This document shows, one piece after another, positions 14,853 to 33,261 of a stretch of DNA of 64,000 nt. The notes under the pieces are model-generated. The model did no database searches, was not told the DNA's origin, and saw nothing but the letters and a program-made list of their open reading frames with translations. The stretch lies in NCBI GenBank assembly GCA_902792855.1, contig CADBBP010000001.1, positions 24,784 to 88,783 on the forward strand, in the 5' to 3' direction. The stretch's first letter is position 1, and every line of letters begins with the position of its first letter. The position numbers and the translations under genes were made by a program. The stretch comes from an uncultured Prevotellaceae bacterium (GTDB lineage: Bacteria; Bacteroidota; Bacteroidia; Bacteroidales; Bacteroidaceae).

Positions 14853-16448
14853 ATGAGAAAACCTATACTCCGAACAATAATCACACTGGTTGCCACACTC
14901 ATCCCGATGCTCCTCTGCGCCCAGGAGGCGGGAGGCTACAGCGTGGGCACCACGCCCACCAAGCGCGGTGCGCTGTTGGAGGAATTCACCGGCATCCACT
15001 GCGGCTTCTGCCCCCAGGGGCACGCCATCGCGAAGAAAATGATGCGCAACCACCCCAACGTGTACTCCATAGCCATCCACTCCGGGCACTATGCCGCCAA
15101 CCACCCCGACGAGCCCGACTTCCGCATCACCGAGGGAGAGGCCCTGGATGCCTTCTTCCACCCCAGCGGCTACCCCAGCGGCATGGTGTCGCGCTCACTC
15201 GTGTTGTCGGATGACGACAGTCCCGTGACAGAGCGGAGCCTGTGGCCCTACCAGGCAAAAGCCATCATTGAACAAGATGCCAGCGTCAACCTCCTCGCCA
15301 CATCGAAATACGACGGCTCCACCGGCAAGCTCTCCATCCATGTGGAAGGCTATTTCACCGCCGAGGAGCAACTCCTTGACCAAGAGCTGATGGTGGTGTG
15401 GACGCAGGGAAACATCTTAGGCCCACAAAGCGGCGCCAACCAAGGCGACGACTATTCCCATCAGCACATGCTCCGCCAGTATGTCACCCCGTTGTGGGGC
15501 GACACCTTGCAGTCTCCCAAGCAAGGGCAGTATTTCACACGCGACTACGAAGTGGTGGTGCCTGCCGACATCAAGAAGGTGGAGGTGGTGCCTGCCGACA
15601 TCCAAGTGCTGGCTTTCGTGTGCAACGGAAAGGGCGAAGTGCTCAACGTCACTTCCTCCAAGCCCGAATACGTCAACTACAGCCTCGTCAGCGGTGCGTT
15701 GGAAGCCCCGCAACTGCCCATCGGCAACCGCTATGCCTTCAATTTCTTCGAAGCATTCCTGAAGAACAACGGCACCGCCCCCATCACCACCGCCACATTT
15801 GACATCACCATCAACGAAGACAAGAAGAGTGTGGAGTGGAGCGGCAACATCGCCCCAGGCAAGGGTGCCGACATCGAGCTGCCCCTCGCCGGCCTTGCCA
15901 TCGACAGGAAAGACGAAAACGAGTATCTCATTGAACTGAAAACCCTCAACGGGCAAAGCGTGAAGTCGAGCAAGCTCAAGGGCGATTTCATCTATGCGCA
16001 GCCATGCACACCCGACTTGGACATCATCATCACGACCAACGACAAGGCCGACGATGCTTTCTACCGCCTCCGCGATGCCGACGGTGCCATCATCAAGGAA
16101 TTCGGCCCCTACCCCGTGGGGGAAATCAGCGAGGACAAGCAACAACTCAACCTTGAGCCCGACCGCGCCTATTGCTTTGAGGTGTGGTGCCCCTGGGGAA
16201 TGGACCTGACCTACCCCAACAGCACCTACGTGATACACAACTCCGACGGGTCCCTGTTGGCACAGGTGCTGAAAATCACCGACTATGGCTCACGCACCTT
16301 CTTCTTCACCTCCAAACCCTCCGGCGTGACAGAACTGCCTGCCGTGGGCAACACACCCGGCACCCTCTTCGACCTCTCCGGCCGACGTGTGACACATCCC
16401 ACACCAGGCCTCTACATCCAAGACGGAAAGAAAATCATCATTCAATAA
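14853..16448 (+). CDS. Omp28-related/thioredoxin-like surface protein with a T9SS C-terminal sorting domain
   Basis: It has a signal peptide, EEFTGIHCGFCPQGH (CxxC in an Omp28-like context) and the C-terminal tail LFDLSGRRVTHPTPGLYIQDGKKIIIQ. Confidence 0.6.
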   Translation: MRKPILRTIITLVATLIPMLLCAQEAGGYSVGTTPTKRGALLEEFTGIHCGFCPQGHAIAKKMMRNHPNVYSIAIHSGHYAANHPDEPDFRITEGEALDAFFHPSGYPSGMVSRSLVLSDDDSPVTERSLWPYQAKAIIEQDASVNLLATSKYDGSTGKLSIHVEGYFTAEEQLLDQELMVVWTQGNILGPQSGANQGDDYSHQHMLRQYVTPLWGDTLQSPKQGQYFTRDYEVVVPADIKKVEVVPADIQVLAFVCNGKGEVLNVTSSKPEYVNYSLVSGALEAPQLPIGNRYAFNFFEAFLKNNGTAPITTATFDITINEDKKSVEWSGNIAPGKGADIELPLAGLAIDRKDENEYLIELKTLNGQSVKSSKLKGDFIYAQPCTPDLDIIITTNDKADDAFYRLRDADGAIIKEFGPYPVGEISEDKQQLNLEPDRAYCFEVWCPWGMDLTYPNSTYVIHNSDGSLLAQVLKITDYGSRTFFFTSKPSGVTELPAVGNTPGTLFDLSGRRVTHPTPGLYIQDGKKIIIQ

Positions 16449-16466
16449 ACATCAACACACTTGATT

Positions 16467-18083
16467 ATGAGAAAAGCTTTACTTTTGTTTGCTGCATTTG
16501 CCTTGAGCATCTGTGCATGGGCCCAGTGGCCTTCCAGCACCGACAAGGCAGTACAAATCTCATTACCCGGACAGAGCGACTACGGCTGCCAGACAGCCTT
16601 CTCACCCGATGGCGTCACCTACGTGGTGAAAATCGTGCCACAAAGACCCGGAGAGGCAGGCCTCACCGTGCTTAGCTACCGTCTCTATGCCCTCGACAAG
16701 GACGGTGTTCTCCTTTCGCCCGCAGAAGGATACGACATCGCCACCGAGAACAACAAATCGTGGACGGCCGTCAACTCGCAACTTTACGTGGACAAGGATG
16801 GTAATGCCATCGTGATGTGCTGCGACAGCCGAAACGCAAGGGAATACTCCGATGAACAAGGATACACCATCTACAAAGTTAATCCCAAAGGAGAAGTCAT
16901 CTGGAAAGCAGACCTCGACAAGGGCAATGTTTACTATCTCCCAGTGAGCATCAACTGCGTTGAGGACACCGACGGCAACTATCTTTTTGCATACACGCCA
17001 TACACCACGATTGAGGCAAACGCAGTACCGCCCTTGCTCTTGGAGAAACTCGACAAGAACACCGGCGCCACCATCTGGACACGCAAGATGGAACACGAAA
17101 CCAGACCCTACGCCTATCCCCACCTGGTGGCCTCCAACAACAACCAGTCGCTTCTCTTCTACCTCTACACCTCCAACCAGTATGTCTATGCCAAGATGCT
17201 CGACAAGGACGGCAACGACGTATGGGATAGCGACGCACGCGTCTATCGCGGCGGCTTTGGCAGCATCCCCGCCCACGTCACCATCAAGTCGTTCGAGGGA
17301 CCCGACGGCGGCGGACTGTTCACCTGGCGCGACGACCGCAATTATGAGGATGTCTATGCCTCATACGCCTCTTATATCAAGGCCGACGGCAGCTATGGCT
17401 TCCCGGGCGAGACCGATGCCTTGAAGGTGTGCTACGACGACTTCCAGTCGCGCAATTCCGCCGACATAGCATGGAGCGAGCAGCATAACTGCTTCTACGC
17501 CGCCCTGCAAATCTTCAACCAAGCCTACCAGAACTACCAAGGACTGTATGTGCAGAAGATTTCAAAGGAAGGCGAACTGCTCTGGGGTCCCAATGGTCTG
17601 GCCTTGGAGCCTCTGGAAGAACAAAGCATCTACAACGACCCCATCGTGCGTATCGACAACGAGGGCAATCCCGTGGTGTTCTACATGAAGACGACAGACA
17701 TCTATACATACCAGACCAACGACATTCAGCAGTGTGCCGTGAAACTGGACAAGGACGGCAACAAGCTTTTCTCTGAAGAGGTGACCTTCGACACGCACAA
17801 GAGTTACAAGACCAGCCTCGCCGTTTCCCAACTGATTGACAACAAGTATTGGGTGGTGGCCTGGTCCGACAACCGTTTCGGTGAAATGGACTACGGCTCC
17901 AACAACATGATGGCCACCCGCTTCAACGTGGACGGGACAATAGGCGACCCGGAGAGCGGCATTCATGCCATCGAAGCGGGTGCCACGTCCGACGATGCCT
18001 ATTTCGACCTCTCGGGCCGACGCGTCTCCCAACCCTCCAAGGGCATATACATCCGCAATGGGCGCAAGACCGTTGTGAGGTGA
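16467..18083 (+). CDS. T9SS-sorted hypothetical surface protein
   Basis: Signal peptide MRKALLLFAAFALSICAWAQ. Repeated D(K/G)DGN segments suggest a propeller-like fold. The C-terminal tail is YFDLSGRRVSQPSKGIYIRNGRKTVVR. I prefer the ATG at 16467 over the TTG at 16461. Confidence 0.65.
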   Translation: MRKALLLFAAFALSICAWAQWPSSTDKAVQISLPGQSDYGCQTAFSPDGVTYVVKIVPQRPGEAGLTVLSYRLYALDKDGVLLSPAEGYDIATENNKSWTAVNSQLYVDKDGNAIVMCCDSRNAREYSDEQGYTIYKVNPKGEVIWKADLDKGNVYYLPVSINCVEDTDGNYLFAYTPYTTIEANAVPPLLLEKLDKNTGATIWTRKMEHETRPYAYPHLVASNNNQSLLFYLYTSNQYVYAKMLDKDGNDVWDSDARVYRGGFGSIPAHVTIKSFEGPDGGGLFTWRDDRNYEDVYASYASYIKADGSYGFPGETDALKVCYDDFQSRNSADIAWSEQHNCFYAALQIFNQAYQNYQGLYVQKISKEGELLWGPNGLALEPLEEQSIYNDPIVRIDNEGNPVVFYMKTTDIYTYQTNDIQQCAVKLDKDGNKLFSEEVTFDTHKSYKTSLAVSQLIDNKYWVVAWSDNRFGEMDYGSNNMMATRFNVDGTIGDPESGIHAIEAGATSDDAYFDLSGRRVSQPSKGIYIRNGRKTVVR

Positions 18084-18126
18084 AAAAAGAGCAACCTACT
18101 TTTACCAACCTAAATAACTCAACTTC

Positions 18127-21100
18127 ATGAAAAAAACTTTATGGCTATTCCTGGGCTTCATGCTCTCCATGATGGGAGTGCAAGCCCAAGTCATGCCCTC
18201 CTACTCGTTTGTGTCGAGTTCAGGCACTTACGAGGAGATCAGCGGCGGCACCGTGCTTGCTACGGCTGCCCTCGCGGGCGATGACTTCGACGGGAAGGTG
18301 TTTGGCGCCGAAGGCACGGCAGTGTCATCATCCGGCGCCGTTGCCGGCATCGACATCGGCTTCACCTTCAAGTACAACAACCAGGACATGACGAAGTTTG
18401 TCGTTTACACCAATGGAGCCATCCAATTGGGAACGGGCGACATCAACGTCAATCCTTCTGGCTACTACAACAACTACGCGAATACCGAGAACTACCTTGG
18501 TATGAGCGACATCCGCGGCGTAACCAACAATGATGCCACGGAGGTGAGCTACAAGGTTGAAGGCTCCGCCCCCAACCGCGTGCTCGTCGTGCAATGGAAG
18601 AACGTCTCGAACAAGACAACCCACTGGGGCGACGACGACTTCATCACCAGCAACCACCAAGTCCGCTTGAACGAGGCCGACTGCAGCGTGCAGGTGGTCT
18701 TCGGCGCGTTCACTCCTTCCGAGACGGTATCCGGCGGTGTCAACTTCAAGGTTGGCGTGGGTGGTGGCTCCGACAATCTCCTCCTCACCACCGGCACCTG
18801 GGCGGAGCCGGTGAGCAGCACCAACGATGTTTCTGCCATCAACACGGGCAAGGGGAGTCTTCCCGCCAACGGGCAGACGTTCACCTTCAACGTCCCACCG
18901 CCCTGCACGGCTCCTGTGGCACAGCCCACCGGACTGGTGCTCAGCGCCACCTCCACGCAGTTCACCGGTGAATTCACCGCCTCTGCCTCTGCCGACCACT
19001 ACCTCGTGCTTTGCTCCGACGCTCCCATCACTGCCACCCCGGCCGATGGTGTGACCTATGCTGAAGGCACCGAACTTGGCGGAGCCATCGTGGTGACTTA
19101 CACGGAGAAGACCTCGTTTGAATCGCCTGACGGCCTCTCTGGTTCGACGAAATATTATGTGGCCGTCTTCGCCGCCAACTCCCGCTGCATGAACGGGCCG
19201 AGCTACCTGCTCGCCGCCCCGCTCACTGGTGAGACAAGCACCCTGCCGGCCGCACCCGCCGGCCTGACGGCCGAGGCCACCGGCGTGAGCACCGTGAAGC
19301 TCTCCTTCCAAGGCAACGCCTCTGGAGACAAGGTGCTGGTGGCCCAGACCAACATGGCAGCCATCAACGACTACGACCAGATGCTCGAGTATGGCGCCTT
19401 TGGCCTGCCCTCTGGCGACCTTGCCGTTGGCAGCGAGATAGCCGGCGGTGGCAAGGTGGTCTTCATAGGCACACCTGGCGAAGCCATCACCCTCGAAGGC
19501 CTTGCCGAGAACAACGCTTGGTTCTTCCGCGCCTGGAGTGTTGACGCCAACGGCAACTGCTCCACCACTTACACCGACGCAGCCACCGCCACCGGCGGCA
19601 CGGTGCCCTACGAGCCCGACCTGAGCCAGTTCTCGCCCTACAACTACGAGTCACTGCCTGGTTGGAACGACACGGGCGCCTTCTATATCCAGGAAGACAC
19701 CGAAGGCAACAAGTTCATCGAGTGCAACCCCTCTCCGGTGGACACCGACCACGGTACCGAGGTGTTCACCAACACGCCTTGGGTGACTTTGGGTGAGGGC
19801 ACCAACCGCGTCCTCTTCGACCTGAACATGGTCAACCCGGGACGCTGGGGAATGACGAACCCATACGCATGGAATGAAGACGACGTGATGCTCATCCAAG
19901 CCAGCGAGGACGGCGAGAACTTCACCACCCTCTACACGGTGAACGACAACAACGCCCCGGTGTTTGCAAGTACCACCGACCGCCTGCACTATGGCATCAA
20001 GTTCGACCAGTTTGCTGGCAAGACAGTGCGCCTGCGCATCTACTTCAAGATTTTCAGCCCCATGCGCGCACAATTCTTCAACTTCGCCGTGGAGCAAGTC
20101 AAGGCCGTGGACTATCCTGCCAACCTGAAGGCCACCATGATTGCCGGTGGCAACGTCACCCTGGCATGGGAGAGCAACAACGACCCTGCCGAGACCGACT
20201 GGGAGGTGCGTTACAAGAAGAGCGACGAGAGCGAATGGAGCGAGCCGGTGGCTGTGAGCGGAGAGCCTACCGTCGTGCTTGCCGGACTCGCAGGCCTGAC
20301 GAACTACGAGGCTCAAGTGCGCGCCAAGAAGGGTGACCAGGAGAGCGACTGGACAAAGAGCTACTTCTTCACCACCGGTCTGGCCATCCCGTTTGAGGAC
20401 ACCTTCGCAGAAGGCAATACTGCCGGCTGGACCCCGATGCACGGCGTGCTGACAGAGGCCGGCGGCCCGTTGGAGGACGAAGGCGCATGGAGATACAACA
20501 ACTGGGGACGTGCGATGGTTTATGCCCCCTATGAAGTGCCGGCCGACGACTGGCTCATCAGCCCCACCATCGACCTGGGCGACGGTTCCAAGTCTTACTC
20601 CATCTGCTACGACATCATGCACAGCTACGGCCAGGGCGAAGCCCAGGGCGTGAAATACCAGATTGTGGTGTCGCGTGACAACGGTGCCACATGGAGCACC
20701 AATGACGTGGTGGCCACCTTCAGCGGCGACGACATCCCGGCAGCAGCAACGGAGAGCACCATCTACTCCGCCAACCTCCAGGGCATCACCGGCCCGGTGA
20801 AAGTCGGCTTCTACATCCACATCGAAGGAGGAGACCCCGACCAGCTGCGGATGAGAAAAATCTCCGTTGTGGAGAATGCGGCACCAGAAGGTGGTGAGTT
20901 CACCGTCACCTACGCCGTACAAGAGGGCGATGCACACGCTTCCGGCGAGACCGTCAGCGTGACAGCCAACGGCAAGGAAGTGGCCACCCTCACCTTCGGC
21001 GAGGAAGGCGGTGCCGACTTCACGGCAGCTTCCGCCGACAGCCATGTGGACGGCTTCGTGGCCTACACTCCAGGCAACGGCGTCAACGGCAACAAGGCAG

Positions 21101-24100
21101 GAGGCACCTTCTACACCATCACTCCGAAATACGACGGAAAGATGACCGTCGCCGTCGTGCTCAACAGCGACAAGGACTTCTTCGTCCTGGAGAACGGCAC
21201 AGCCCTGCCCGAATACGACGCATACAGGGCAACGGAGAAATACTACGGAACGTTCGACTTCGACGTGAAGGGCGGCAGCAGCTACAAGATTTACTGCGCC
21301 GGCTCCAAGCTCGGCTTCTACGGCTTCAACTACAGCGGCTCTATCCCGTCGGATGAAATCTACATCGAGACCGACCTCACCAGCCAGTTTGCTTCCCTCA
21401 CCGAGTACACCAACTGGGTGGGTGCCAGCGGCTACGCCACATGGGCGGCTCCACAGGTGACCACCAATGCCGGACAGACCGTCTATATGTGCGAGCGATA
21501 TGACACCAACTGCGAGACCACCGGAGACGTGTTCTACCAGAACCTCACCGGCCTCACACCCGGCACCTACAAGATTGAACTCTACGGCTCGGCTGCCTTT
21601 ACCTTCGGACGTGGCATCCGTTCCGATGCCTTCGCTGACGACGACACACCTGAAGGCCCGCTGACAGAGAATACCGGCATCAAGCTCTACGCACAAACCA
21701 GCGAGGGCGTCGTGGAGCAGGAAATCGCCGCTTACAAGGCCACCTCGTTCTCCGAGGTTTCCACCGCCGTGCTCGACGGCGTGGTAGTGGGCGAAGATGG
21801 TGCCATGAAGCTCGGCATGAGCAAGAACACCAAAGCCACCAACTGGCACATCGTACAGCTGAAGGGCGTCACCGCCAAGGTGCTGGCCTCCGAACTCTTT
21901 GCAACCTACATCGCACAGGCTCAAGCCCTCTTGGGCGAGCCGATGAACGGCGAGACCCTCGCACAGTTGCAGGCCGCCATGGTGGACAACAGCGGCTTCA
22001 CCACCGCTGAGCAATATGAGCAGGCCATCGCCAAGCTTGACGAGGCCATCGCCGAAGCCAACAAATCAATAGCAGCCTACAAGAACGTGAAGGACGCTCT
22101 CGACACCTACGCTGCGAAGGCTGCCCTGCTCGACGCCGACGGCCAGGCCGCATACGACGTCGCTGCCATCCAGAAAGCTTACGACGAGCGCACACTGACC
22201 GACGACAGCGTCACGGCTGAAATCGCTGCCAAGTACATCGCTGCAGTGAAGCAGCAGACCACTCCGGGCTCCGACTACACCGACGCAGGAAGCAAGGCCC
22301 AGAGCGCATGGATTGGCTCCACAGGGGTTTACCAAGGTGACTATGCAGAGCGCTTCGGTGAGGAGATGCCCGCCGACACCATCATGCACCAGACCATCAG
22401 CGGCCTGAAGGAAGGCACCTACAAGGTGGAACTCTACGCCGTGGCAAGCCAGGCTTGGAACAGCGCTGCTGTGGGCAACGACATCACCGTGGCTTACGCC
22501 AACGATGGCATCTACCCGCTTGAGGTCATCGCCCAGGTGGCTTGCGACCCCACGGCATCCGTCGCCACGATGGAAGCCAACGTTGGCAGCGACGGCTTGC
22601 TCGACATGGGCATGCGCAACATCGCTGCAGGTGGCAACTGGTTCGTCATCCAGCTCAAGTCCATCTCGCTCGTGAGCCTGGTGCCCTCCGTAGGAGAGGC
22701 CATCACACTCGACATCGAGAGCGGCAAGGACATCACCACCGAGTTGGCAGCGGCCATGGAAAACAACCCCAAGCCAGCGGCCATCAACATCAACCTCGCT
22801 GCTGGTGGTGAATACACCGTCAGCGGAACCATCGAGACGGCTGCACCGCTCACCATCTCGGGTGACGAGAACAGCATCGCAACCATCGACGCCTCAGCCC
22901 TCAATGCACCGCTGACAGCCATCAGCACCACTCCGTATGAGAGCACGCTCAACGCCGCCAACAACTTCTACGGCATCGGCGACATCGCCTTCAAGAACCT
23001 GAAGGTGAAGGGCCTCAAACAACAGCTCATCTTTGGTAACAAGGTACGCGCACTGATTGACAACCTGATTGTTGACAACTGCATCATCGAAATTGCCGGT
23101 GGCAGCAAGACAACCTTCGATTTCAACGGAGGCGGCGTCGTTGGCCTATTTACGGTGAACAACTCCACCATCTACGGCAACCCGCAGCACACAGGCCAGC
23201 TCTACAGCTCGCAAAGCGGACAGAAGGCCACGGAGGTGAGCGAAGACTTCATTCAGAAGTTCTCTTTCACCAGCAGCACCTTCTTCAACTTCTCCTACGG
23301 CAAGAACGTCACCTCTCACCGCCAGAGCAACCAGAAATGGCTGAGCTACGAACTGACCAACTGCCTCGTGGTGGACTGCGGAAAGGACGGCCAGTTTGTC
23401 AAGGGCCTCAACGGAGGACAAGGAGGCGCCAACCCCACTTGGAGCATCTTCGGCAACTCCTTCCAGCGCATTGTTGACGGCGCATTCACCGACATCAGTG
23501 CCAATGAGAGCACCGGCGACGACGATGAGCCTGTGGTCAACAGCCTGGAAGGCGTGGTGGTCTTCGCCGGCGACTACGCCAACGGCGACTTCACCTTGGG
23601 CAGTTGCCCGCAAAGCGAAGCCTTGATCGGCGACCCGCGCTGGCTGAGCATCGACCACACCCTCGTACTCAACGTGGAGAGTGGCAAGGACATCACCACC
23701 GAGTTGGCAGCCGCCTTGGAGAACAATCCGAAACCGACGGCCATCAACATCAACCTTGCCGCCGACGGCCAATACACCGTCAGCGGAACCATCGAGACGG
23801 CGGCACCGCTCACCATCTCTGGCGACGAAAGCAGCATCGCCACCATCGACGCGGCAGCCCTCAGCGCACCACTGGCAGCCATCAGCACCACCCCGTATGA
23901 GAGCACGCTCAACGCCAACAACAACTTCTATGAAATTGGCAACATCACCTTCCAGAACGTGAAGGTGAAGGGCCTCGCCCAACCGCTCATCTACGGCAAC
24001 AAGGTGCGCGCATTCATAGAGAACCTGCTTGTTGAAAACTGCGTCATCGAGATTGCCGGCGGCAGCAAGACGACCTTCGACTTCAACGGAGGAGGCGTGG

Positions 24101-25728
24101 TGGGACACCTCACGGTGAACAACTCCACCATCTACGCCAACCCGCAACACACCGGCCAGCTTTACAGCTCGCAGAGCGGGCAGAAGGCTACGGAGGTGAG
24201 CGAAGACTTCATTCAGAAGTTCACCTTCACCAACTGCACCTTCTACAACTTCTCCTACGGGAAGAACGTCACATCCCATCGCCAGAGCAACCAGAAATGG
24301 CTGAGCTATGAGATGAGCGGCTGCATCGTGGTGGACTGCGGCAAGGACGGTCAGTTCGTCAAGGGTCTCAACGGTGGACAAGGCGGCCCCAACCCCATCT
24401 GGGACATCAACGGCAACTCCTTCCAACGCATTGTTGACGGCAAGTTCACCGACATCAGCGCCAACGAGAGCACCGGCGACGACGAGGAGCCCGTGGAGAA
24501 CAACGTGGAAGGCGTGGTGGCCTTTGCCGGAGACTATGCCAACGGCGACTTCACCTTGGGTTATTGCGTACAGGATATCTTGGGCATAGGAGACCCGAGG
24601 TGGCTAAGTGGCACCAATTACTATAACTTCGTGGCCAGCGAATGGATTGCCGGCGACCCGGGACGCATCAGCCCCGACCAAGTAAGCGTCAATGAGGAGG
24701 AGAACACCATCACGGTGAGCCAGACGGGACAGAACAACGTGAATCTGCTCTTCCGCTCTCAGAACGTCTATACCGTGCCGGCAGAAGCCCGTTACTTCAT
24801 CATCACCGCCAAAGGTCTTTCCACCAACGACGGCGACAGTTATCTCTGGTGGCTGAACAACACCAACGACGGAGGACAGTACAAGCCCACTGCCATCTAT
24901 GAGGAGGACGGAGAGACCGTCTTCGCATGGGATGCCAACCTCCTTCCCATCGGCGGCAACCTCGGCTTCGAAACAACGGAGTTCAAGGACGACGGCGGAT
25001 GGAGCACCACCTTTGGTATGACACTGGCCGACCCGGCCGTGCCGGCAGTCATCAGCTACATCGGCTTCACCAACAACATCGAGCAACCGACGGAGGAGGC
25101 TGAGTATGCATGGGACGCCACACTTTGGGTGGCCGGCGACCCGGGACGCATCTCACCCGACAAGGTGGTGGTGGACGAGACGGCCAACACCATCACGGTG
25201 AGCCAGACGGGCGACAACAACGTGGCATTGCTCTATCAGACCGACAAGGTGCTCTACGTGAACAACGCGAAGTACTTCGTCATCCAGGGCAAGGGGCTCT
25301 CCATCGCTGCCACCAAGTCTTACCTCTGGTGGCTGAACAACACGAACAACGGCAGCCAGGTGGAACCCAACATCGCTGTTGAGGACCAGGACGGCACCGT
25401 CACCCTCGTGTGGACCATCGCCGACACCGGCCTGGGAGCTTCCTTCGAGACGGAGACAGGCAAGACCTACCTCGTGGGCAACGCCGGATGGAACACCACC
25501 TTCGGCCTCACCTTGGCCGATGAGAACGTGCCAGCCGTCATCAGCTACATCGGCTATGAGACAACCAACTCCGACATCGTGAAACATGCGGAGGAACTCA
25601 CAGGCATCGTCAACGTGACCATCGACGTGGCCAACGGCGACATCTACGACCTCATGGGCCGCAAGGTGCTCACACCGCGCAAGGGCAACGTCTATATCCA
25701 AAACGGAAAGAAGTTTGTCGTGAAATAA
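18127..25728 (+). CDS. giant (2533 aa) multidomain T9SS-sorted cell-surface protein
   Basis: It has a signal peptide, FN3-like segments (for example NLKATMIAGGNVTLAWES...YEAQVRA) and an Ala-rich helical segment. Two 320-aa beta-helix-like modules end in GDPRWLS, and two 161-aa modules follow. The C-terminal tail is IYDLMGRKVLTPRKGNVYIQNGKKFVVK. Confidence 0.85.
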   Translation: MKKTLWLFLGFMLSMMGVQAQVMPSYSFVSSSGTYEEISGGTVLATAALAGDDFDGKVFGAEGTAVSSSGAVAGIDIGFTFKYNNQDMTKFVVYTNGAIQLGTGDINVNPSGYYNNYANTENYLGMSDIRGVTNNDATEVSYKVEGSAPNRVLVVQWKNVSNKTTHWGDDDFITSNHQVRLNEADCSVQVVFGAFTPSETVSGGVNFKVGVGGGSDNLLLTTGTWAEPVSSTNDVSAINTGKGSLPANGQTFTFNVPPPCTAPVAQPTGLVLSATSTQFTGEFTASASADHYLVLCSDAPITATPADGVTYAEGTELGGAIVVTYTEKTSFESPDGLSGSTKYYVAVFAANSRCMNGPSYLLAAPLTGETSTLPAAPAGLTAEATGVSTVKLSFQGNASGDKVLVAQTNMAAINDYDQMLEYGAFGLPSGDLAVGSEIAGGGKVVFIGTPGEAITLEGLAENNAWFFRAWSVDANGNCSTTYTDAATATGGTVPYEPDLSQFSPYNYESLPGWNDTGAFYIQEDTEGNKFIECNPSPVDTDHGTEVFTNTPWVTLGEGTNRVLFDLNMVNPGRWGMTNPYAWNEDDVMLIQASEDGENFTTLYTVNDNNAPVFASTTDRLHYGIKFDQFAGKTVRLRIYFKIFSPMRAQFFNFAVEQVKAVDYPANLKATMIAGGNVTLAWESNNDPAETDWEVRYKKSDESEWSEPVAVSGEPTVVLAGLAGLTNYEAQVRAKKGDQESDWTKSYFFTTGLAIPFEDTFAEGNTAGWTPMHGVLTEAGGPLEDEGAWRYNNWGRAMVYAPYEVPADDWLISPTIDLGDGSKSYSICYDIMHSYGQGEAQGVKYQIVVSRDNGATWSTNDVVATFSGDDIPAAATESTIYSANLQGITGPVKVGFYIHIEGGDPDQLRMRKISVVENAAPEGGEFTVTYAVQEGDAHASGETVSVTANGKEVATLTFGEEGGADFTAASADSHVDGFVAYTPGNGVNGNKAGGTFYTITPKYDGKMTVAVVLNSDKDFFVLENGTALPEYDAYRATEKYYGTFDFDVKGGSSYKIYCAGSKLGFYGFNYSGSIPSDEIYIETDLTSQFASLTEYTNWVGASGYATWAAPQVTTNAGQTVYMCERYDTNCETTGDVFYQNLTGLTPGTYKIELYGSAAFTFGRGIRSDAFADDDTPEGPLTENTGIKLYAQTSEGVVEQEIAAYKATSFSEVSTAVLDGVVVGEDGAMKLGMSKNTKATNWHIVQLKGVTAKVLASELFATYIAQAQALLGEPMNGETLAQLQAAMVDNSGFTTAEQYEQAIAKLDEAIAEANKSIAAYKNVKDALDTYAAKAALLDADGQAAYDVAAIQKAYDERTLTDDSVTAEIAAKYIAAVKQQTTPGSDYTDAGSKAQSAWIGSTGVYQGDYAERFGEEMPADTIMHQTISGLKEGTYKVELYAVASQAWNSAAVGNDITVAYANDGIYPLEVIAQVACDPTASVATMEANVGSDGLLDMGMRNIAAGGNWFVIQLKSISLVSLVPSVGEAITLDIESGKDITTELAAAMENNPKPAAININLAAGGEYTVSGTIETAAPLTISGDENSIATIDASALNAPLTAISTTPYESTLNAANNFYGIGDIAFKNLKVKGLKQQLIFGNKVRALIDNLIVDNCIIEIAGGSKTTFDFNGGGVVGLFTVNNSTIYGNPQHTGQLYSSQSGQKATEVSEDFIQKFSFTSSTFFNFSYGKNVTSHRQSNQKWLSYELTNCLVVDCGKDGQFVKGLNGGQGGANPTWSIFGNSFQRIVDGAFTDISANESTGDDDEPVVNSLEGVVVFAGDYANGDFTLGSCPQSEALIGDPRWLSIDHTLVLNVESGKDITTELAAALENNPKPTAININLAADGQYTVSGTIETAAPLTISGDESSIATIDAAALSAPLAAISTTPYESTLNANNNFYEIGNITFQNVKVKGLAQPLIYGNKVRAFIENLLVENCVIEIAGGSKTTFDFNGGGVVGHLTVNNSTIYANPQHTGQLYSSQSGQKATEVSEDFIQKFTFTNCTFYNFSYGKNVTSHRQSNQKWLSYEMSGCIVVDCGKDGQFVKGLNGGQGGPNPIWDINGNSFQRIVDGKFTDISANESTGDDEEPVENNVEGVVAFAGDYANGDFTLGYCVQDILGIGDPRWLSGTNYYNFVASEWIAGDPGRISPDQVSVNEEENTITVSQTGQNNVNLLFRSQNVYTVPAEARYFIITAKGLSTNDGDSYLWWLNNTNDGGQYKPTAIYEEDGETVFAWDANLLPIGGNLGFETTEFKDDGGWSTTFGMTLADPAVPAVISYIGFTNNIEQPTEEAEYAWDATLWVAGDPGRISPDKVVVDETANTITVSQTGDNNVALLYQTDKVLYVNNAKYFVIQGKGLSIAATKSYLWWLNNTNNGSQVEPNIAVEDQDGTVTLVWTIADTGLGASFETETGKTYLVGNAGWNTTFGLTLADENVPAVISYIGYETTNSDIVKHAEELTGIVNVTIDVANGDIYDLMGRKVLTPRKGNVYIQNGKKFVVK
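22717..24636 (+). repeat. in-frame tandem duplication of 2 x 960 bp (320 aa) within the giant gene
   Basis: The copies start at 22717 and 23677 (ESGKDITTELAAA(M/L)ENNPKP...). Most residues are identical by eye through to GDPRWLS. Confidence 0.9.
24640..25565 (+). repeat. in-frame tandem duplication of about 2 x 483 bp (161 aa) within the giant gene
   Basis: EWIAGDPGRISPDQVSVNEEENTITVSQTG... is repeated as LWVAGDPGRISPDKVVVDETANTITVSQTG.... Both copies end in PAVISYIG. Confidence 0.85.
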
Positions 25729-25755
25729 GCACACGAGCATCCTACTCTCATACGT

Positions 25756-25786
25756 GGGGGAATGGCCTTGGCCATTCCCCCATTTT
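25756..25786 (+). terminator. intrinsic terminator after the giant gene
   Basis: The stem gggggaatgg/ccattccccc is followed by atttt. Confidence 0.6.
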
Positions 25787-25938
25787 GTATCACTTGATTT
25801 TTCAAAATCGAAAAGTTAGGCCAATAATGGCCGGCAAAAACAAATGCCTTTTTATCCATCATATAGGGAAACCTGTTCATTGGGGGGCCTATATGATTGT
25901 TTTTGACCAAAAATTTTGTCTAATTTCGAAAGATATAG

Positions 25939-25946
25939 TATTTTTG
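25939..25946 (+). promoter_or_regulatory. Bacteroidota -7 promoter box (TATTTTTG)
   Basis: Exact TAnnTTTG match 38 nt upstream of the ATG at 25984. Confidence 0.35.
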
Positions 25947-25983
25947 CATTTTCTGAAACATATCAATTCATCATTATATATCT

Positions 25984-26360
25984 ATGCATAGAACCATATC
26001 AAAATGGCTCCTGGTGCCAACCCTGGAGGGCAATACCGGCGGCACATTCATCCGCCTCGCCTCCGGCAAGAGCGCATCCTTCGAGGACTGCTGGTGTACA
26101 CGCTACATCGGCACCGAGCAAGGCACCTGCGTGTTCGGCAAGGTTGGTGTGCCGGAAGGCTGCAAGTGGGAGATGGTGGAGGAGCCAGACCTGCGGTTCG
26201 CCGGCAAGTCCTACTGGAAGAGCAGAACAAACAACTCAGTGAATACTGGGAGATGCTCCTGGAGGCGGGCATGGGAGGTTTTAGCGATGGAGAAGGTATC
26301 ATGGAAACCGACCTCAAAGACAAGAACGCCGTCGAAGTGTCACGCGTCAAACGTAGATAA
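25984..26360 (+). pseudogene. small Cys-rich ORF split by a -1 frame change near 26205-26215
   Basis: Genome-typical G/C-ending codons run in one frame from 25984 to about 26210 (…FEDCWCTRYIGTEQGTCVFGKVGVPEGCKWEMVEEPDLRFAGK). They continue in the -1 frame to the TAA at 26358-26360 (LLEEQNKQLSEYWEMLLEAGMGGFSDGEGIMETDLKDKNAVEVSRVKRR). I recognise no family. Confidence 0.35.
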
Positions 26361-26381
26361 GCCATAGATTATTCAGAAAAT

Positions 26382-28073
26382 ATGAACATAACAATGAGAA
26401 AAAATGTGATTTTGGTCGCTCTCTTGGCGATGAGCGGGGGGGCGATGGCGCAAGGGTCGTGGGAAGATTTAATATCCGAGCCGGAAATGATTGACAACAT
26501 CAACAAACAGATTACAATCTCCAAAGAGGGAGAACTCGCCTGGATTGCCTATCAGGTAAACGAGGGGGAATCGGACTTCGATGGATACACAATCACCTTA
26601 AACAAAGACCTTGACTTCGTGGGTCACATCTGGAAACCAATAGGATATGGGGATGAACTCGACGACGGTAATAGCTTCAAGGGTACTTTCAACGGAAAAG
26701 ACGAAGAAGGGAACATCCATACCATCAAACACCTCGACGTCAAGAATGGTTGTGGCGTCGGCTTGTTTGGATATATATACAATGCCACCATCAAAAACCT
26801 CATTCTTGAGGATTGCCACTTCACCGGCGAATACAACGTGGGAGCCATCGTGGGCAACAATGGCGGCAGCACATACGGCAGCAACAATCCCAACGTGGGC
26901 ATCTACAACTGCCATGTGGGAAGCGGGGTCACTGTCACTGCCAAAGGTGAAAATGAGGATGACGGATTAAATGCCGGAGGAATTATCGGGTGCCTGTCTT
27001 CCATCACCGTCAGTAATTGCACGTCAGCCGCAACGGTGAAAGGTGTAACTTGCGTGGGGGGGATTGCAGGTCTTCTCCTTGGTGAAATCATTGATGGCAA
27101 ACAGTGTGGTGAAATAGATGACTGCTACTACCTCGGATATGATATCCAGGCATCTGATGAAGACTTGGGAGAATATGGTACTATCGTGGGGGCTCGGGGA
27201 TATCCCGACCCTGATACGGAAGGTGCTATCCAGAAGGGTACAGAAGGACGCATTCACATCACACTCTTCGACAATGATGTGAACAACAATGACATCATTA
27301 TCAATAACAACAGCCTCAATAACGAGCAACGCATCTTTTATTATTTGGACATGAAGGATATAAGTATTACCATACAGGGGCGCACCCTGTACAGGGACGG
27401 CTCATGGAATACGCTCTGCCTGCCTTTCTCACCTATTCCCGGAACCACGACTCCTCTTGAGGAAGGCAACCCCGTCGTACAGGAATTGGAAGAATCTACA
27501 TACGACGAAGAAACAAATACTTTGAATCTCGTTTTCAAGGAGTTGACGAATGGTATTCATGACATGTCGCCACGTTATCCATACATCGTGAAGTGGAATG
27601 CGGGGACTCCCCTCGAAAATCCTACTTTCAACCATGTGGTCATGGTGGGAAGCGACGTCTCCGAGCCTAATGATGTGGAGCAGGACAATGTCTCCTTCTG
27701 TGGCATATACACCACTATCGACATCTTCACCACCGAGAAGACCAACCTCTATCTTGGCTACGACAGCAATGAAAAAACGTCAAAACTCTACTATCCATGG
27801 GGAAATGAAATGGAGTACTTCTATATCAACTCCTTCCGTGCCTATTTCAAACTCATCGGCCTCACGGCTGACCAAACCAGTTCCTCCAATGGCATCAACA
27901 ATTTCGTGCTGAACTTCGGAGGCGAAAGCACTGGCATCAAGGAGATTTCAAATCCCATATCCCATGCCTCCAATTCCTCGGAATGGTTTTCTCTTGACGG
28001 AAGAAAATGGGACAGCAAGCCCAAGGCCAAGGGCATCTACGTCAACAATGGCCAAAAGGTGGTCATCAAATAA
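26382..28073 (+). CDS. GLUG-motif surface protein with a WNT-x-x-LPF domain and a T9SS C-terminal sorting domain
   Basis: It has a signal peptide and the GLUG-like repeats VGAIVGNNGG, AGGIIGCLSS and VGGIAGLLLG. It also has RTLYRDGSWNTLCLPF and NSFRAYFKL. The C-terminal tail is WFSLDGRKWDSKPKAKGIYVNNGQKVVIK. The start could instead be 26394. Confidence 0.75.
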   Translation: MNITMRKNVILVALLAMSGGAMAQGSWEDLISEPEMIDNINKQITISKEGELAWIAYQVNEGESDFDGYTITLNKDLDFVGHIWKPIGYGDELDDGNSFKGTFNGKDEEGNIHTIKHLDVKNGCGVGLFGYIYNATIKNLILEDCHFTGEYNVGAIVGNNGGSTYGSNNPNVGIYNCHVGSGVTVTAKGENEDDGLNAGGIIGCLSSITVSNCTSAATVKGVTCVGGIAGLLLGEIIDGKQCGEIDDCYYLGYDIQASDEDLGEYGTIVGARGYPDPDTEGAIQKGTEGRIHITLFDNDVNNNDIIINNNSLNNEQRIFYYLDMKDISITIQGRTLYRDGSWNTLCLPFSPIPGTTTPLEEGNPVVQELEESTYDEETNTLNLVFKELTNGIHDMSPRYPYIVKWNAGTPLENPTFNHVVMVGSDVSEPNDVEQDNVSFCGIYTTIDIFTTEKTNLYLGYDSNEKTSKLYYPWGNEMEYFYINSFRAYFKLIGLTADQTSSSNGINNFVLNFGGESTGIKEISNPISHASNSSEWFSLDGRKWDSKPKAKGIYVNNGQKVVIK

Positions 28074-28081
28074 CATGACAC

Positions 28082-28116
28082 ATTCAGCCTCCATGCACAC
28101 CGCATGGAGGCTGAAT
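28082..28116. terminator. perfect 15-bp-stem hairpin (no U-run)
   Basis: The hairpin attcagcctccatgc-acacc-gcatggaggctgaat lies directly after the stop of 26382..28073. Confidence 0.45.
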
Positions 28117-28306
28117 GTCAAGAGGCAGTCATTGCTTCTCCTACGACACAGAGGGCTACTATTGGACTAACGAACTGGAGCCTTTCATAACAGACTACGC
28201 ACTCATATTACGTTTCACTCCACGGGTAGTTCATCATAAAAACTTCTATAATGCACCACGCGACATGGGTATGCCCGTCCGTGCAGTATCTACAACCAGC
28301 CCCTGA
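28115..28306 (+). pseudogene. orphan C-terminal fragment resembling a Fibrobacter-succinogenes-major-paralogous (FISUMP)/DUF1566-type domain
   Basis: GYYWTNE...YALILRF...RDMGMPVRAV resembles the G.YWSS...A..L.F...G.SVRCV end of that domain family. It has no plausible N-terminus or promoter. Confidence 0.3.
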
Positions 28307-28426
28307 CATCACTATAACAAGAAATCGTCGGCTATGCTGCAACATTGTTGCAGCCTTATAGCAGGCAAAAAATGTAGAAAAGGCGAAAAAAACGACCTAA
28401 GAATGTGTGCTTTTCATTTTTTTTGT

Positions 28427-28434
28427 TATCTTTG
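28427..28434 (+). promoter_or_regulatory. Bacteroidota -7 promoter box (TATCTTTG)
   Basis: Exact TAnnTTTG match 22 nt upstream of the ATG at 28456. It lies inside the longer 28405 ORF, which argues for the shorter start. Confidence 0.45.
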
Positions 28435-28455
28435 CCGTGCCTAAACAATGAAGCT

Positions 28456-29277
28456 ATGCAGAAATACGCCGACTACATCGAACAGATAGAGATAGACTCC
28501 CTTTGGAGCGGTCGCCGCCACATCAAATGGGACTTGGACCAGCATGTGAACATCCTCAGCGGCACCAACGGCCAAGGCAAGAGCACCATCATCAACAAAG
28601 TGGTGAAAGGACTCGCCGCAGGAGGCGAATATCCCAGCCACCTGCTCAAGGGCGTTCACCTGAAGGTGTTCCCCTCGGAGGCGAGATGGATACGCTTCGA
28701 CGTCATCCGCTCCTTCGACCGCCCCTTGATGAACCTCGACACGTTGGCAAAAATGGACATGAGCCTTGCCACGGAACTCGACTGGCAACTCTTCCAGCTT
28801 CAGCGCAAATACTTGGACTACCAAGTGAACATCGGCAACCGCATCATTGAGGTGCTTCAGAGCGGCGACCCCGACGCGGCACAACGAGCACAGGCATTCT
28901 CCGCACCCAAGAAGCGTTTCCAAGACCTGATGGACGACCTCTTCTCCGACACGGGCAAGAAAATCGTCCGCACCGCCAACGAAATCTTCTTCTCACAGAT
29001 AGGAGAGACGCTCGTTCCCTACCAGTTGTCGAGCGGCGAGAAGCAGATGCTCGTCATCCTCCTCACCGTGCTCATACAGGACAACAAGCCGTCGGTGCTC
29101 TTCATGGACGAGCCGGAGGTGAGCCTCCACATCGAATGGCAGAAACGCCTCATCGACATGGTGTTGGAACTCAACCCCAACGTCCAAATCATCCTCACCA
29201 CACACTCCCCGGCCGTCATCATGAATGGTTGGATTGACCACGTGACCGAGGTGTCGGACATCACCGACAGCTTCTAA
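28456..29277 (+). CDS. compact ABC-type (AAA_21/23-like) ATPase, AriA/AbiLi-like
   Basis: Walker A is GTNGQGKST, the ABC signature is LSSGEKQ, Walker B is VLFMDEPEVSLH and the H-loop is TTHSP. A helical insert of about 60 aa sits between Walker A and the signature. The protein is 273 aa. Confidence 0.75.
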   Translation: MQKYADYIEQIEIDSLWSGRRHIKWDLDQHVNILSGTNGQGKSTIINKVVKGLAAGGEYPSHLLKGVHLKVFPSEARWIRFDVIRSFDRPLMNLDTLAKMDMSLATELDWQLFQLQRKYLDYQVNIGNRIIEVLQSGDPDAAQRAQAFSAPKKRFQDLMDDLFSDTGKKIVRTANEIFFSQIGETLVPYQLSSGEKQMLVILLTVLIQDNKPSVLFMDEPEVSLHIEWQKRLIDMVLELNPNVQIILTTHSPAVIMNGWIDHVTEVSDITDSF

Positions 29278-29295
29278 CCCACCCAAATTTCGCCC

Positions 29296-30423
29296 ATGGC
29301 CAAACGCCTCAGAGACAACCTCACCTCCGACTACTTCAGCGCAGCCAACAAACTGAAGCCCAAGACCGCCCGTCGCCGTATCGCCGCATACGTGGAAAGC
29401 TACGACGACATCTTCTTTTGGCGGTCCGTGCTGAGCGAGTTTGAAGACGACACCCGCTATTTCGAGGTGATGCTGCCCTCCAAGGTGAACCTGTCCAAAG
29501 GCAAGAAACAAGTGCTGATGAACCTCGTGGGCGACAACGTGGGCGAGGACTTGATAGCCTGCGTCGATGCCGACTACGACTTCCTGGTCCAAGGAGTGAC
29601 CAAGACTTCGGAGAAGGTGATACACAACCCATACGTCTTCCACACCTACGTCTATGCGATTGAAAACTACCAGTGCTACGCCCCCTCCCTGCACAACGTA
29701 TGCGTGATGGCCACCCTCAACGACCACCAAATCTTCAATTTCGAGGAATACCTGCGCCAATTCTCACAAGCCATCTTCCCACTCTTCGTGTGGAGCATCT
29801 GGTACTACCGCTCACCCAAATACACCGATTTCACCATCACCGACTTCAACAAGGTGATTGAGACAGGCCATTTCACCCTGGCCAATGCCGCCGACGGCCT
29901 CGCCAACGTGCGGCACAAGGTGGGCCGTAAAATCATCCAGTTGCAGAAAGAGAACCCCGAGGCGAAGGACTCCTACCTGGCACTGAAAGACGAGTTGAAA
30001 GCCCTCGGCGTCACGCCCGACACCACCTACCTCTACATCCAGGGACACCACCTCTACGACAATGTGGTGGCACCGATGCTCGGCAAGGTTTGCGACCGCC
30101 TGCGCCGGGAGCGGGAGATAGAGATTCACAACAAGGCCGTGCACCACACCCAGATGCGCAACGAACTGTCGTGCTACGAGCACAGCATAGAGAGCGTGTC
30201 GGCGATGCTGAAGAAAAACACCGGCTACACCCGCTCAAAGCCCTACAACCGTCTCCGTGCCGACCTCACCTACTTCCTTTCCCACCTGCCACCTCTCCGG
30301 AAAGCGGAAATCCACACCACCCCGCAAGCAACCCCTTCCCCCATCCCGCAAGCAACCCATCCCCTCACCCCGCATCCATCACAACAACCCCAACAGCCAT
30401 TCACGGCTTCCCAAGACCTATAA
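29296..30423 (+). CDS. DUF4435/Toprim-like protein (AriB/AbiLii/OLD-nuclease-like) with a Pro/Thr/Gln-rich tail
   Basis: It has AAYVESYDDIFFW (Toprim Glu), ACVDADYDF (DxD) and YAIENY, in the order expected for DUF4435. It starts 18 nt after the ATPase. The tail is TTPQATPSPIPQATHPLTPHPSQQPQQP. Confidence 0.65.
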   Translation: MAKRLRDNLTSDYFSAANKLKPKTARRRIAAYVESYDDIFFWRSVLSEFEDDTRYFEVMLPSKVNLSKGKKQVLMNLVGDNVGEDLIACVDADYDFLVQGVTKTSEKVIHNPYVFHTYVYAIENYQCYAPSLHNVCVMATLNDHQIFNFEEYLRQFSQAIFPLFVWSIWYYRSPKYTDFTITDFNKVIETGHFTLANAADGLANVRHKVGRKIIQLQKENPEAKDSYLALKDELKALGVTPDTTYLYIQGHHLYDNVVAPMLGKVCDRLRREREIEIHNKAVHHTQMRNELSCYEHSIESVSAMLKKNTGYTRSKPYNRLRADLTYFLSHLPPLRKAEIHTTPQATPSPIPQATHPLTPHPSQQPQQPFTASQDL

Positions 30424-30426
30424 CCC

Positions 30427-30813
30427 ATGGAACAAAAAACCGCCTCCATCGAGACCGCACGCCTTCTGCGGAAACACCGTTTCAACGAGCCCACCACGAG
30501 CTACTACGACGCCGACGGCACTTTTCACACCGTAAGCACCTCCGAAGCGTGCAACTGGAACAGCCCCACCTACGACAAGAGCCCCCGGAAGAAAGCCTAC
30601 TCCTCCCCCTCGCTCTCCCTCGCCCACCAGTGGCTACGCGAGAAAAAACGTTTCGACGTGCTGGTGGACCGTGACTACCTTTTCGGCAAGGTGGGCAAGT
30701 ATTACGCCAAAATCATCCGCCTGAAGGATGGAGCCATCGGCGAGACAGGCAAGTACCGCAGCTTCGAGAAAGCCTTGGAGCAAGGCATCGTGAAAGCCCT
30801 CCGCACGATGTAA
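30427..30813 (+). CDS. hypothetical 128-aa protein, third gene of the ATPase/DUF4435 operon
   Basis: The ATG is 3 nt after the preceding stop. Codon usage is genome-typical, and a terminator follows. I recognise no motif. Confidence 0.55.
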   Translation: MEQKTASIETARLLRKHRFNEPTTSYYDADGTFHTVSTSEACNWNSPTYDKSPRKKAYSSPSLSLAHQWLREKKRFDVLVDRDYLFGKVGKYYAKIIRLKDGAIGETGKYRSFEKALEQGIVKALRTM

Positions 30814-30846
30814 GACCCCTGCAATCGTTTTCGTGAAAAAGAAATC

Positions 30847-30872
30847 GCCAAGCCATCGGTTTGGCCTTTTTT
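30847..30872 (+). terminator. intrinsic terminator
   Basis: The hairpin gccaagcc-atc-ggtttggc is followed by cttttttg. Confidence 0.6.
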
Positions 30873-30877
30873 GTTCG

Positions 30878-30885
30878 TACCTTTG
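30878..30885 (+). promoter_or_regulatory. Bacteroidota -7 promoter box (TACCTTTG)
   Basis: Exact TAnnTTTG match 21 nt upstream of the ATG at 30906. Confidence 0.45.
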
Positions 30886-30905
30886 CAGCCCAAAACAAAC
30901 AAGCC

Positions 30906-32246: not shown

Positions 32247-32260
32247 GGCCCCCTCACCCC

Positions 32261-32294
32261 AAAGCGCCCCCCATAAGTCATGAGGGGCGCTTTT
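32261..32294. terminator. bidirectional terminator hairpin
   Basis: The arms aagcgcccc and ggggcgctt are flanked by A/T runs. The hairpin lies between convergent nhaD(+) and cysK(-). Confidence 0.55.
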
Positions 32295-32313
32295 GCATTC
32301 GTGGGTCATCGCA

Positions 32314-33261
32314 TCATAGCGGGTACTCGTCAAAGGCGTAGAGCACGGTGGAGAGATAGCGCTCGCCTGTGTCGGGCAGCAGCACGACGATGTTCTTCCC
32401 CTTGTTCTCCGGCCTGGCGGCGATTTGGGCAGCGGCGAAAGCAGCCGCTCCCGACGAGATGCCTACGAGCAACCCCTCCGTCCTGGCCAAGAGCCGGCCG
32501 GTGCGTATGGCGTCGTCGTTGTCCACGTCCACCACCTCGTCGATGATGCCGGCGTCATAGGTCGCGGGGACGAAGCCGGCCCCAATGCCCTGGATTTTGT
32601 GCGGTCCGCTCTTTCCGCCATTGAGCACGGGCGACGAAAGCGGTTCCACTGCCACCACCTTCACCTCGGGGTTGCGCTCCTTGAGCAGCCTTCCCACGCC
32701 GGAGACGGTGCCTCCAGTGCCCACGCCGGCCACGAAGATGTCCACCTTCCCGTCAGTGTCCTCCCACACCTCACGTCCGGTGGTGAGGTAGTGCCTTTCG
32801 GGGTTGGCTTGGTTTTCAAACTGCTGCAGGATGATGCTTCCCGGGATGGAGTCCCTCAGTTGCTCTGCTGCCTTGATGGCTCCCGGCATGCCGTCCTTCC
32901 CACTGGTGAGTTTCACCTCCGCACCGTATGCCTTGACGAGGTTTCTCCTCTCCACGCTCATGGTTTCCGGCATGGTGAGTATGAGTTTGTATCCCTTGAC
33001 AGCCGCCACGAGTGCGAGGCCCACTCCCGTGTTTCCACTGGTGGGTTCGATGATGGTTCCACCCGGTTTGAGAAGTCCCTTTTCCTCCGCATCCTCAATC
33101 ATGGCGAGGGCGATGCGGTCTTTTACACTGCCACCCGGGTTGAAATATTCCACTTTTGCCACGATGGGTTTTTCCAGACCCTTCTCAGCCGAAAACTTTC
33201 CTAATTCGAGCAACGGCGTATGCCCGATGAGCTCTGTGAGCACTTTTGCTACTTTTGCCAT
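32314..33261 (-). CDS. cysK: cysteine synthase A (O-acetylserine sulfhydrylase)
   Basis: It has [16 protein letters not shown] (the PLP lysine motif), EPTSGNTG and GVGTGGT, and is 315 aa long. Confidence 0.9.

Follow-up and report, generated by a model that had tools for sequence, protein, structure and literature searches.

The stretch of DNA considered here (the window, 64,000 nucleotides in all) comes from an uncultured Prevotellaceae bacterium (GenBank assembly GCA_902792855.1, contig CADBBP010000001.1, positions 24,784 to 88,783 of the forward strand) and carries three co-directional genes, here called g1, g2 and g3. According to hidden Markov model (HMM) searches, the first two belong to the families of AriA and AriB, the ATPase and the DUF4435/Toprim protein of the PARIS defence system, and the third encodes a small basic protein of a family found in phages. 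A description made from the letters of this DNA and its open reading frames (ORFs), without database searches (hereafter the sequence-only reading), had proposed the three genes as a candidate defence operon. The genes and signals of the locus, in the coordinates of the window, are the following:

28427..28434, forward strand: promoter box TATCTTTG, Bacteroidetes-type -7 box (consensus TAnnTTTG), read from the sequence
28456..29277, forward strand: g1, 273 aa from the ATG, 31 kDa, compact AriA-like ABC ATPase
29296..30423, forward strand: g2, 375 aa, AriB-like DUF4435/Toprim protein
30317..30364, forward strand: tandem 24-nt direct repeat in the g2 tail (repeat family D3)
30427..30813, forward strand: g3, 128 aa, basic alpha/beta protein of the phrog_12005 family
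30847..30875, forward strand: intrinsic-terminator-like hairpin followed by a T-run (hairpin 30847-30865, 8-bp stem with 5 G-C pairs)

The ORF coordinates agree with the operon-like layout described in the sequence-only reading, with 18 nt between g1 and g2 and 3 nt between g2 and g3. An in-frame GTG at 28405 provides an alternative start for g1, giving a protein of 290 aa; the commonest length of g1 across species is 273 aa. The -7 box that had been placed at 28427 was also recovered: TATCTTTG ends 21 nt before the g1 ATG, and of 79 species 63 have a TAnnTTTG box in the 100 nt that precede g1, in most cases at a distance of 20-28 nt from the ATG. A sigma-70 promoter scan of the region, which is uninformative for this phylum, gave no match. 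At the other end of the locus, the hairpin and T-run read as a terminator at 30847 do exist and begin 34 nt after the g3 stop codon, but terminator-like sites in the region (3) do not exceed the shuffle mean (4.0), so that only the position after g3 argues for this assignment. The composition of the three genes is host-like, as had been claimed, with a GC content at third codon positions (GC3) of 0.79-0.81 compared with 0.76-0.80 in the core neighbours. A search of positions 25500-33500 against Rfam with E-values up to 0.1 revealed no RNA family.

All the motifs that had been quoted for g1 (GTNGQGKST, LSSGEKQ, VLFMDEPE and TTHSP) were found, and its key residues are K42 of Walker A, the signature LSSGEKQ, D218/E219 of Walker B and H250 of the H-loop. 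Pfam searches support the ABC ATPase assignment (AAA_21, 4e-20, 73.4 bits; AAA_15, 4e-18, 66.6 bits), and no housekeeping equivalog is matched in NCBIfam. Among the defence-system models of PADLOC the best match is AriA: residues 6-271 of g1 align with positions 4-252 of the 253 positions of PDLC04164 (7.8e-56). As this model matches g1 end to end, a compact class of AriA has already been modelled. The best PDB match by sequence is E. coli AriA (8ux9; 1.6e-13, HMMER), in an alignment that covers just the N- and C-terminal halves of the ATPase head and superimposes K42 and E219 of g1 on K39 (Walker A) and E393 (Walker B) of AriA. Both residues of g1 are invariant in 37 homologues. The aligned head segments are separated by about 140 residues in g1 vs about 320 in AriA, and the AlphaFold2 model of g1 places a single helical hairpin here (residues 107-163, with helices 107-136 and 141-163). 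This model, with a mean pLDDT of 67, was used for secondary-structure layout and for family-level Foldseek matches alone, the top chains being AriA and PtuA. Across 74 species, per-site conservation of the insert (0.71-0.80) approaches that of the ATPase head (0.85-0.87), and no hypervariable patch was detected in the insert.

The motifs of g2 (YVESYDD, CVDADYD and AIENY) are equally present. In Pfam this protein matches DUF4435 alone, over the full length of the model (1.4e-55, 189 bits), and in PADLOC it matches AriB models (PDLC02983, 6e-64; PDLC04165, 4e-35) and no other family. Its acidic residues E34, D37, D38, D91, D93, D95 and E123 are invariant in 38 homologues (alignment A2), and the conservation on which the DUF4435/Toprim proposal depended was thus borne out. 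The conserved core of g2 corresponds to about residues 1-330, and is followed by a Pro/Thr/Gln-rich tail (residues 331-375) that in the same alignment is hypervariable in length and composition between species. The 14-nt direct repeat on which this tail was said to be built proved to be the exact core, CCCGCAAGCAACCC, of two 24-nt units that are 88% identical. Note also that in another contig of the same species (L006, about 720..990) a 109-nt C-rich insertion within the tail repeat leads to a premature stop 113 nt before g3, reflecting either an indel-prone tail or an assembly artefact.

PARIS systems have been detected by the adjacency of two genes, one that scores at least 32 bits with AAA_15 or at least 27 bits with AAA_21 and one that scores at least 27 bits with DUF4435 (Rousset et al., 2022, PMC9122126). 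With the bit scores given above and a gap of 18 nt, g1 and g2 satisfy this rule, and their best defence-system HMM matches in PADLOC are AriA and AriB, respectively. Of the relationships suggested in the sequence-only reading, that with PARIS therefore stood, whereas those with AbiL and with OLD-family nucleases such as Gabija GajA did not. The pair consists of two separate genes and not of a fusion, g2 shows DUF4435 alone in Pfam, and GajA does not figure in the 25 best PADLOC matches of g1; as for AbiL, g2 has no AbiLii match, and AbiLi is not among the same 25 matches of g1.

Comparison with PARIS of the E. coli B185 P4 satellite (PDB 8ux9, 8v45-8v49; PMC9122126, PMC11464382) reveals the same arrangement of a gene for an AAA_15/21 ABC ATPase followed by a DUF4435/Toprim gene, together with the aligned Walker A Lys and Walker B Glu in the ATPase and the conserved Toprim acidic residues in g2. 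However, E. coli AriA has 464 aa, and g1 has just 273. The two ATPases also differ in how their central regions vary, as the trigger-binding residues of AriA are poorly conserved in E. coli PARIS (PMC11464382), whereas a variable trigger-recognition surface is not seen in g1, where the insert is almost as conserved as the head. A further difference is the additional coupled gene g3, which is found in one clade.

The compact architecture, presented as unusual in the sequence-only reading, is in fact standard across Prevotella and Bacteroides. A Bacteroides pair formed by an AAA ATPase (WP_007751218) and a DUF4435 protein (WP_022275889) is orthologous to g1 (60% identity) and g2 (about 51% identity), is compact too (282 and 333 aa), has the same divergently oriented EamA/DMT neighbour and contains an ATPase that matches PDLC04164 over its full length; both proteins are multispecies RefSeq entries, with at least 1000 and 637 contigs, respectively. 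Differently from the window, no g3 lies downstream of the Bacteroides pair, its place being taken by a mechanosensitive-channel gene. In the literature searched for PARIS in Prevotella or Bacteroides, only a table of DefenseFinder results for B. thetaiotaomicron proved relevant; in it, a 333-aa DUF4435 gene and a 291-aa AAA_21 gene of strain jmh43 are labelled PARIS_II (PMC12135933). According to RNA-seq counts this pair is transcribed (PMC12135933); it is likened to the Bacteroides orthologue by gene sizes, not by sequence identity. The pair itself is thus of a known kind, to which standard tools already give the PARIS_II label in Bacteroides.

Compact pairs are not confined to the Bacteroidales. 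ColE1-type plasmids of 4-5 kb from E. coli and Klebsiella (NZ_CP104443, NZ_CP084858; pairs at L162 1971..3984 and L163 1879..3826) carry genes for an AAA ATPase of 325-343 aa and a DUF4435 protein of about 325 aa, which match the same compact PADLOC models, PDLC04164 and PDLC04165. In contrast to the proteins of the window, the plasmid ATPases match part of the compact model only, and the plasmid DUF4435 proteins are about 22% identical to g2. Mobile compact PARIS-like pairs therefore exist in Enterobacteria.

The distribution of the pair was established by scanning one genome per species, and at least 347 of these species-representative genomes proved to encode a relative of g2; this count is a lower bound, since the scan was seeded on exact peptides. 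The loci of the best 80 of these genomes, all of them from Prevotella-group organisms, were examined in detail, and g1 lies directly upstream of g2 in 80 of 80. Within 10 kb of the pair are found TrkH and TrkA (58/80), DXS (53/80), PMI (44/80) and cysteine synthase (31/80), and in Pfam-annotated contigs of divergent species the order of the block is PALP-(EamA)-ATPase-DUF4435-(PMI)-TrkH-TrkA-DXS, with no defence or mobile genes beside the pair. Among 51 species, the mean pairwise divergence of g1 (0.25) and g2 (0.38) is similar to that of DXS (0.26) and TrkA (0.31), and the distance matrices correlate (r 0.63-0.82) about as well as those of TrkA and DXS do with each other. No relative of the pair was found in a phage collection of 50,697 records, and close matches labelled as plasmids come only from Bacteroides finegoldii and Phocaeicola massiliensis. 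The annotated plasmid-labelled record of B. finegoldii holds genes of chromosomal type, its ATPase orthologue is 60% identical to g1, and the pair adjoins the same EamA/DMT gene.

The pair thus shows neither the residence in mobile elements or defence hotspots nor the patchy distribution expected of PARIS and, unlike E. coli PARIS, is chromosomally fixed, syntenic and slow-evolving. The proposal of an accessory insertion point or defence island was not upheld, as the pair sits in a conserved housekeeping block and diverges at housekeeping rates. To judge from these comparisons, g1-g2 is an ancient, vertically inherited component of Bacteroidales genomes and not an insertion. A housekeeping context throughout the genus had been named in the sequence-only reading as an observation that would speak against the defence proposal; such a context is what we observe for the pair, while the full trio is confined to one clade.

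The third gene has a different history. A narrow g3 family is made up of 29 homologue clusters (57-98% identity, 28 invariant alignment columns), and its member in the window has a pI of 9.7 and a confident AlphaFold2 model (mean pLDDT 93). In every narrow-family contig with enough flank g3 comes right after the pair, and in 10 of 16 loci, those with a cleanly callable start, it begins -4 to +10 nt from the g2 stop. Fifteen of the 80 species carry g3 (16 with the window), at 57-91% protein identity to the window copy, and in a neighbour-joining tree of g1+g2 all 16 carriers form a strictly monophyletic group; g3 was therefore gained once and then kept.

A constant association of g3 with the pair, which the sequence-only reading had proposed to check, holds true for the narrow family and fails beyond it. 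The closest relatives outside this family (35-40% identity, 52 rumen metagenome loci) have no g1- or g2-like gene nearby in any of the 52 loci, and 3 of the 6 such loci that were examined adjoin genes typical of conjugative elements (RadC, DUF4099, ParA-like, WYL-domain). An exhaustive profile search at E-values up to 1e-3 retrieved a wide family of 1544 clusters, mostly of 115-145 aa, whose alignment (A3) is too divergent to serve as a seed for scans of sequence collections; viral contigs scanned with the single proteins P0273 and P0278 gave no match. The family has no Pfam model, and no Pfam or PADLOC family ties g3 to PARIS. g3 does match phrog_12005 over its full length (2.2e-7, residues 7-126 on profile positions 6-128 of 137), distant g3 relatives doing so at 1e-15 to 1e-18, and structural matches in BFVD are uncharacterised phage proteins (E down to 4.5e-8, TM-score 0.70-0.78). 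Homologues with 27-29% identity occur in crAss-like phages of Bacteroides, within runs of small genes of unknown function; examples of phrog_12005 are those of Kolpuevirus 'frurule' (WEY17602) and cr106_1 (QOR58294). Differently from these phage copies, g3 is chromosomal, has host-like composition and is coupled to a DUF4435 gene. In the predicted model, residues 63-127 adopt an alpha-beta-beta-beta-alpha layout resembling that of a double-stranded RNA-binding domain (dsRBD), and the C-terminal half of g3 matches such domains with weak scores (Foldseek probability up to 0.99, E 0.05-0.5, target-normalised TM 0.5-0.6) and no Pfam match.

Two further observations concern relatives of g3. In Kolpuevirus 'frurule' and cr106_1 (L100 3739..4354 and L101 3370..4420; Steigviridae) the g3 homologues lie directly downstream of tRNA-Arg, tRNA-Ile and tmRNA; that phage homologues would always stand beside tRNA genes was ruled out by Rudgehvirus jaberico (L164), where no tRNA is annotated within 2.5 kb. 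A giant repetitive protein of 2519 aa (P0270) contains 18 stretches that match positions 21-74 of the g3 profile. It was compared with the 2533-aa ORF of the window mentioned below, and the two are unrelated.

As the pair was not inserted, it is the material beside it, namely a block of about 13-14 kb and an upstream slot, that was. The block (14853..28073) separates PMI from the pair and holds two ORFs of about 530 aa, one of 2533 aa that has matches to DUF4957, pectate-lyase-like and fn3, and one of 563 aa whose GC3 of 0.59, against 0.76-0.81 in its neighbours, suggests recent import. In most other Prevotella species PMI, TrkH, TrkA and DXS are much nearer to the pair than in the window. The gene fragment and the large hairpin that had been noticed upstream of the pair are both real. 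The hairpin is a perfect inverted repeat (28080..28118, 17-nt arms and a 5-nt loop) that begins 7 nt after the stop of the 563-aa ORF, is not followed by a T-run and lies in a region 95% identical in another contig of the species (L002); it probably ends the upstream gene and thus lies outside the trio. The fragment, a 63-aa ORF (28115..28306, forward strand), is a gene remnant with a weak resemblance (25% identity over 51 aa, E 0.002) to the C-terminal end of a gene of 244 aa, whose N-terminus looks like a signal peptide. Full copies of 244 or 206 aa occupy the same slot on the reverse strand of two same-species contigs (L002 2427..3161 and L007 2757..3377), and, the flanks being 95-99% identical, the strains differ here by an indel of about 1 kb just upstream of the pair promoter. 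The locus varies in this stretch immediately preceding the pair and in whether g3 is present. In a related Prevotella species (L011 1..3364), the orientation of the pair and g3 with respect to PMI/TrkH is reversed, and genes for a DDE transposase and a type I restriction-modification S subunit are found 3-6 kb upstream, in the sole defence or mobile neighbourhood seen.

Taking these data together, the reading that we favour, and to which we give about an even chance, is that g1 and g2 are the Bacteroidales version of PARIS (AriA/AriB, class 4 OLD-like), that is, a compact PARIS-type defence module that has become chromosomally fixed. By analogy with E. coli PARIS, a dimer or higher oligomer of g1 would keep g2 inactive until ATP-dependent sensing of a signal frees it, and the Toprim site of g2 (E34, D91/D93/D95 and E123) would then cleave RNA, most likely tRNA, leading to translation arrest. 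The signal sensed by g1 would probably be a conserved one, unlike a trigger of the Ocr type, since one short hairpin that is not hypervariable stands in place of the trigger-binding domains. The third gene was acquired in a single event by the ancestor of a rumen Prevotella clade, its source being a family of small proteins of crAss-like phages and conjugative-marker regions. It is probably translated together with g2, as its start lies within a few nucleotides of the g2 stop, and we infer that it most likely modulates g2, either as an inhibitor or antitoxin-like brake or as an RNA-binding adaptor.

Several observations weigh against this interpretation. Compared with E. coli AriA, g1 is without roughly 180 residues of the helical domains (a coiled coil and the insertions IS1 and IS2) that build the hexamer, a trimer of dimers, and its trigger-binding pores; the assembly and sensing mechanism of E. 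coli PARIS may thus not carry over to the compact protein, for which, moreover, the structure model is of moderate confidence. The divergence of g2 is such that searches of PDB chains by sequence and by profile gave no match, the solved AriB included; the equivalence of E34 of g2 with E26 of AriB is consequently inferred, not aligned. By its conserved linkage, g3 is a putative partner of the pair. Finally, the near-universal presence of the pair among the genomes found, its conserved synteny and slow rate, and the uniformly conserved insert of g1 are atypical of defence systems.

This last pattern fits at least as well the strongest of the alternatives, according to which the pair is homologous to PARIS but performs a housekeeping function, e.g. 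in RNA maturation, tRNA quality control or repair, where it would act as a Toprim RNase or DNase under the control of ATP, so that the PARIS labels given in Bacteroidales are over-annotations. We consider this possibility a serious one, albeit distinctly less probable than the defence reading. Each of the 80 species examined has the pair in a syntenic position, and at least 347 were detected; its orthologue in Bacteroides and Phocaeicola keeps the same EamA neighbour, and its divergence resembles that of DXS and TrkA, with no hypervariable sensor patch. In divergent species its flanks are free of defence and mobile genes, the phage collection holds no relative, and the close plasmid-labelled matches look like chromosomal contigs. 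A promoter box of its own precedes the pair in most species, and its transcription has been recorded in B. thetaiotaomicron. However, the nearest characterised relatives of g1 by sequence and fold are all defence ATPases, i.e. AriA and PtuA of Septu and retron systems, and no housekeeping equivalog of NCBIfam recognises the pair. The recruitment of a mobile-element-family protein next to the nuclease suggests genetic conflict, and an immune role is compatible with a location in the core genome.

A second alternative concerns g3 only, which could be an unrelated passenger, i.e. a mobile-element gene that landed once downstream of g2 and is read through from the pair promoter. Its absence from 64 of the 80 species, in which the pair persists without it, would be in line with this view, as would the 52 loci where its closest relatives have no g1- or g2-like neighbour and the want of any Pfam or PADLOC family connecting it with PARIS. 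Nevertheless, all 16 descendant species have retained g3 at the same position and at the identity given above, its start, where clear, never leaves the range of -4 to +10 nt from the g2 stop, despite the highly variable g2 tail, the 28 invariant columns and the confident model argue for purifying selection, and its codon usage is fully host-like. We therefore regard a passenger role as rather unlikely, somewhat more so than the housekeeping alternative.

One may also go further and imagine that the pair is a fixed core-genome sentinel nuclease acting on RNA or tRNA throughout the Bacteroidales, that phrog_12005 proteins are modulators carried by mobile elements (inhibitors or triggers), and that such a counter-defence protein was domesticated in one rumen Prevotella lineage, where it became a co-translated regulator; this scenario is speculative and, in our estimation, improbable. 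Least probable by far, and hardly tenable, is the view of the trio as a miniaturised novelty, a defence operon that is accessory, was recently mobile and occupies a variable site: although the strain-variable upstream DNA (a remnant in the window, the full 244-aa gene in L002 and L007), the atypical GC3 of the 563-aa ORF and the transposase and restriction-modification genes of L011 could be cited in its favour, synteny and divergence make the pair ancestral at its position, its composition is host-like, its compact form is the norm of the lineage and already represented in PADLOC, and the variable material consists of inserts beside the pair and not of the pair.

What is new here with respect to characterised PARIS systems is a truncated ATPase without the trigger-binding helical domains, the core-genome status of the pair and a lineage-specific third gene. 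A pair that carries the PARIS label thus behaves as a core gene pair, syntenic and slow-evolving, and does so without the large domains by which E. coli AriA binds its trigger. If the pair is immune in function, an abortive-infection-type system would have become fixed throughout one of the major bacterial groups of gut and rumen, and would be a natural target for counter-measures of crAss-like phages; if it is a housekeeping one, PARIS would be overcounted in censuses of defence systems in Bacteroidales. The single capture of a phage or mobile-element small protein beside a nuclease offers a concrete handle for assaying g3 and its phage homologues against g2. Were phrog_12005 proteins indeed modulators, a core host nuclease would be linked with an unexplored accessory family of phages and, speculatively, with the tRNA genes of crAss-like phages. 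The question raised by the locus is thus whether Bacteroidales possess a fixed PARIS-like sentinel to which the phrog_12005 proteins are the counterparts on mobile elements.

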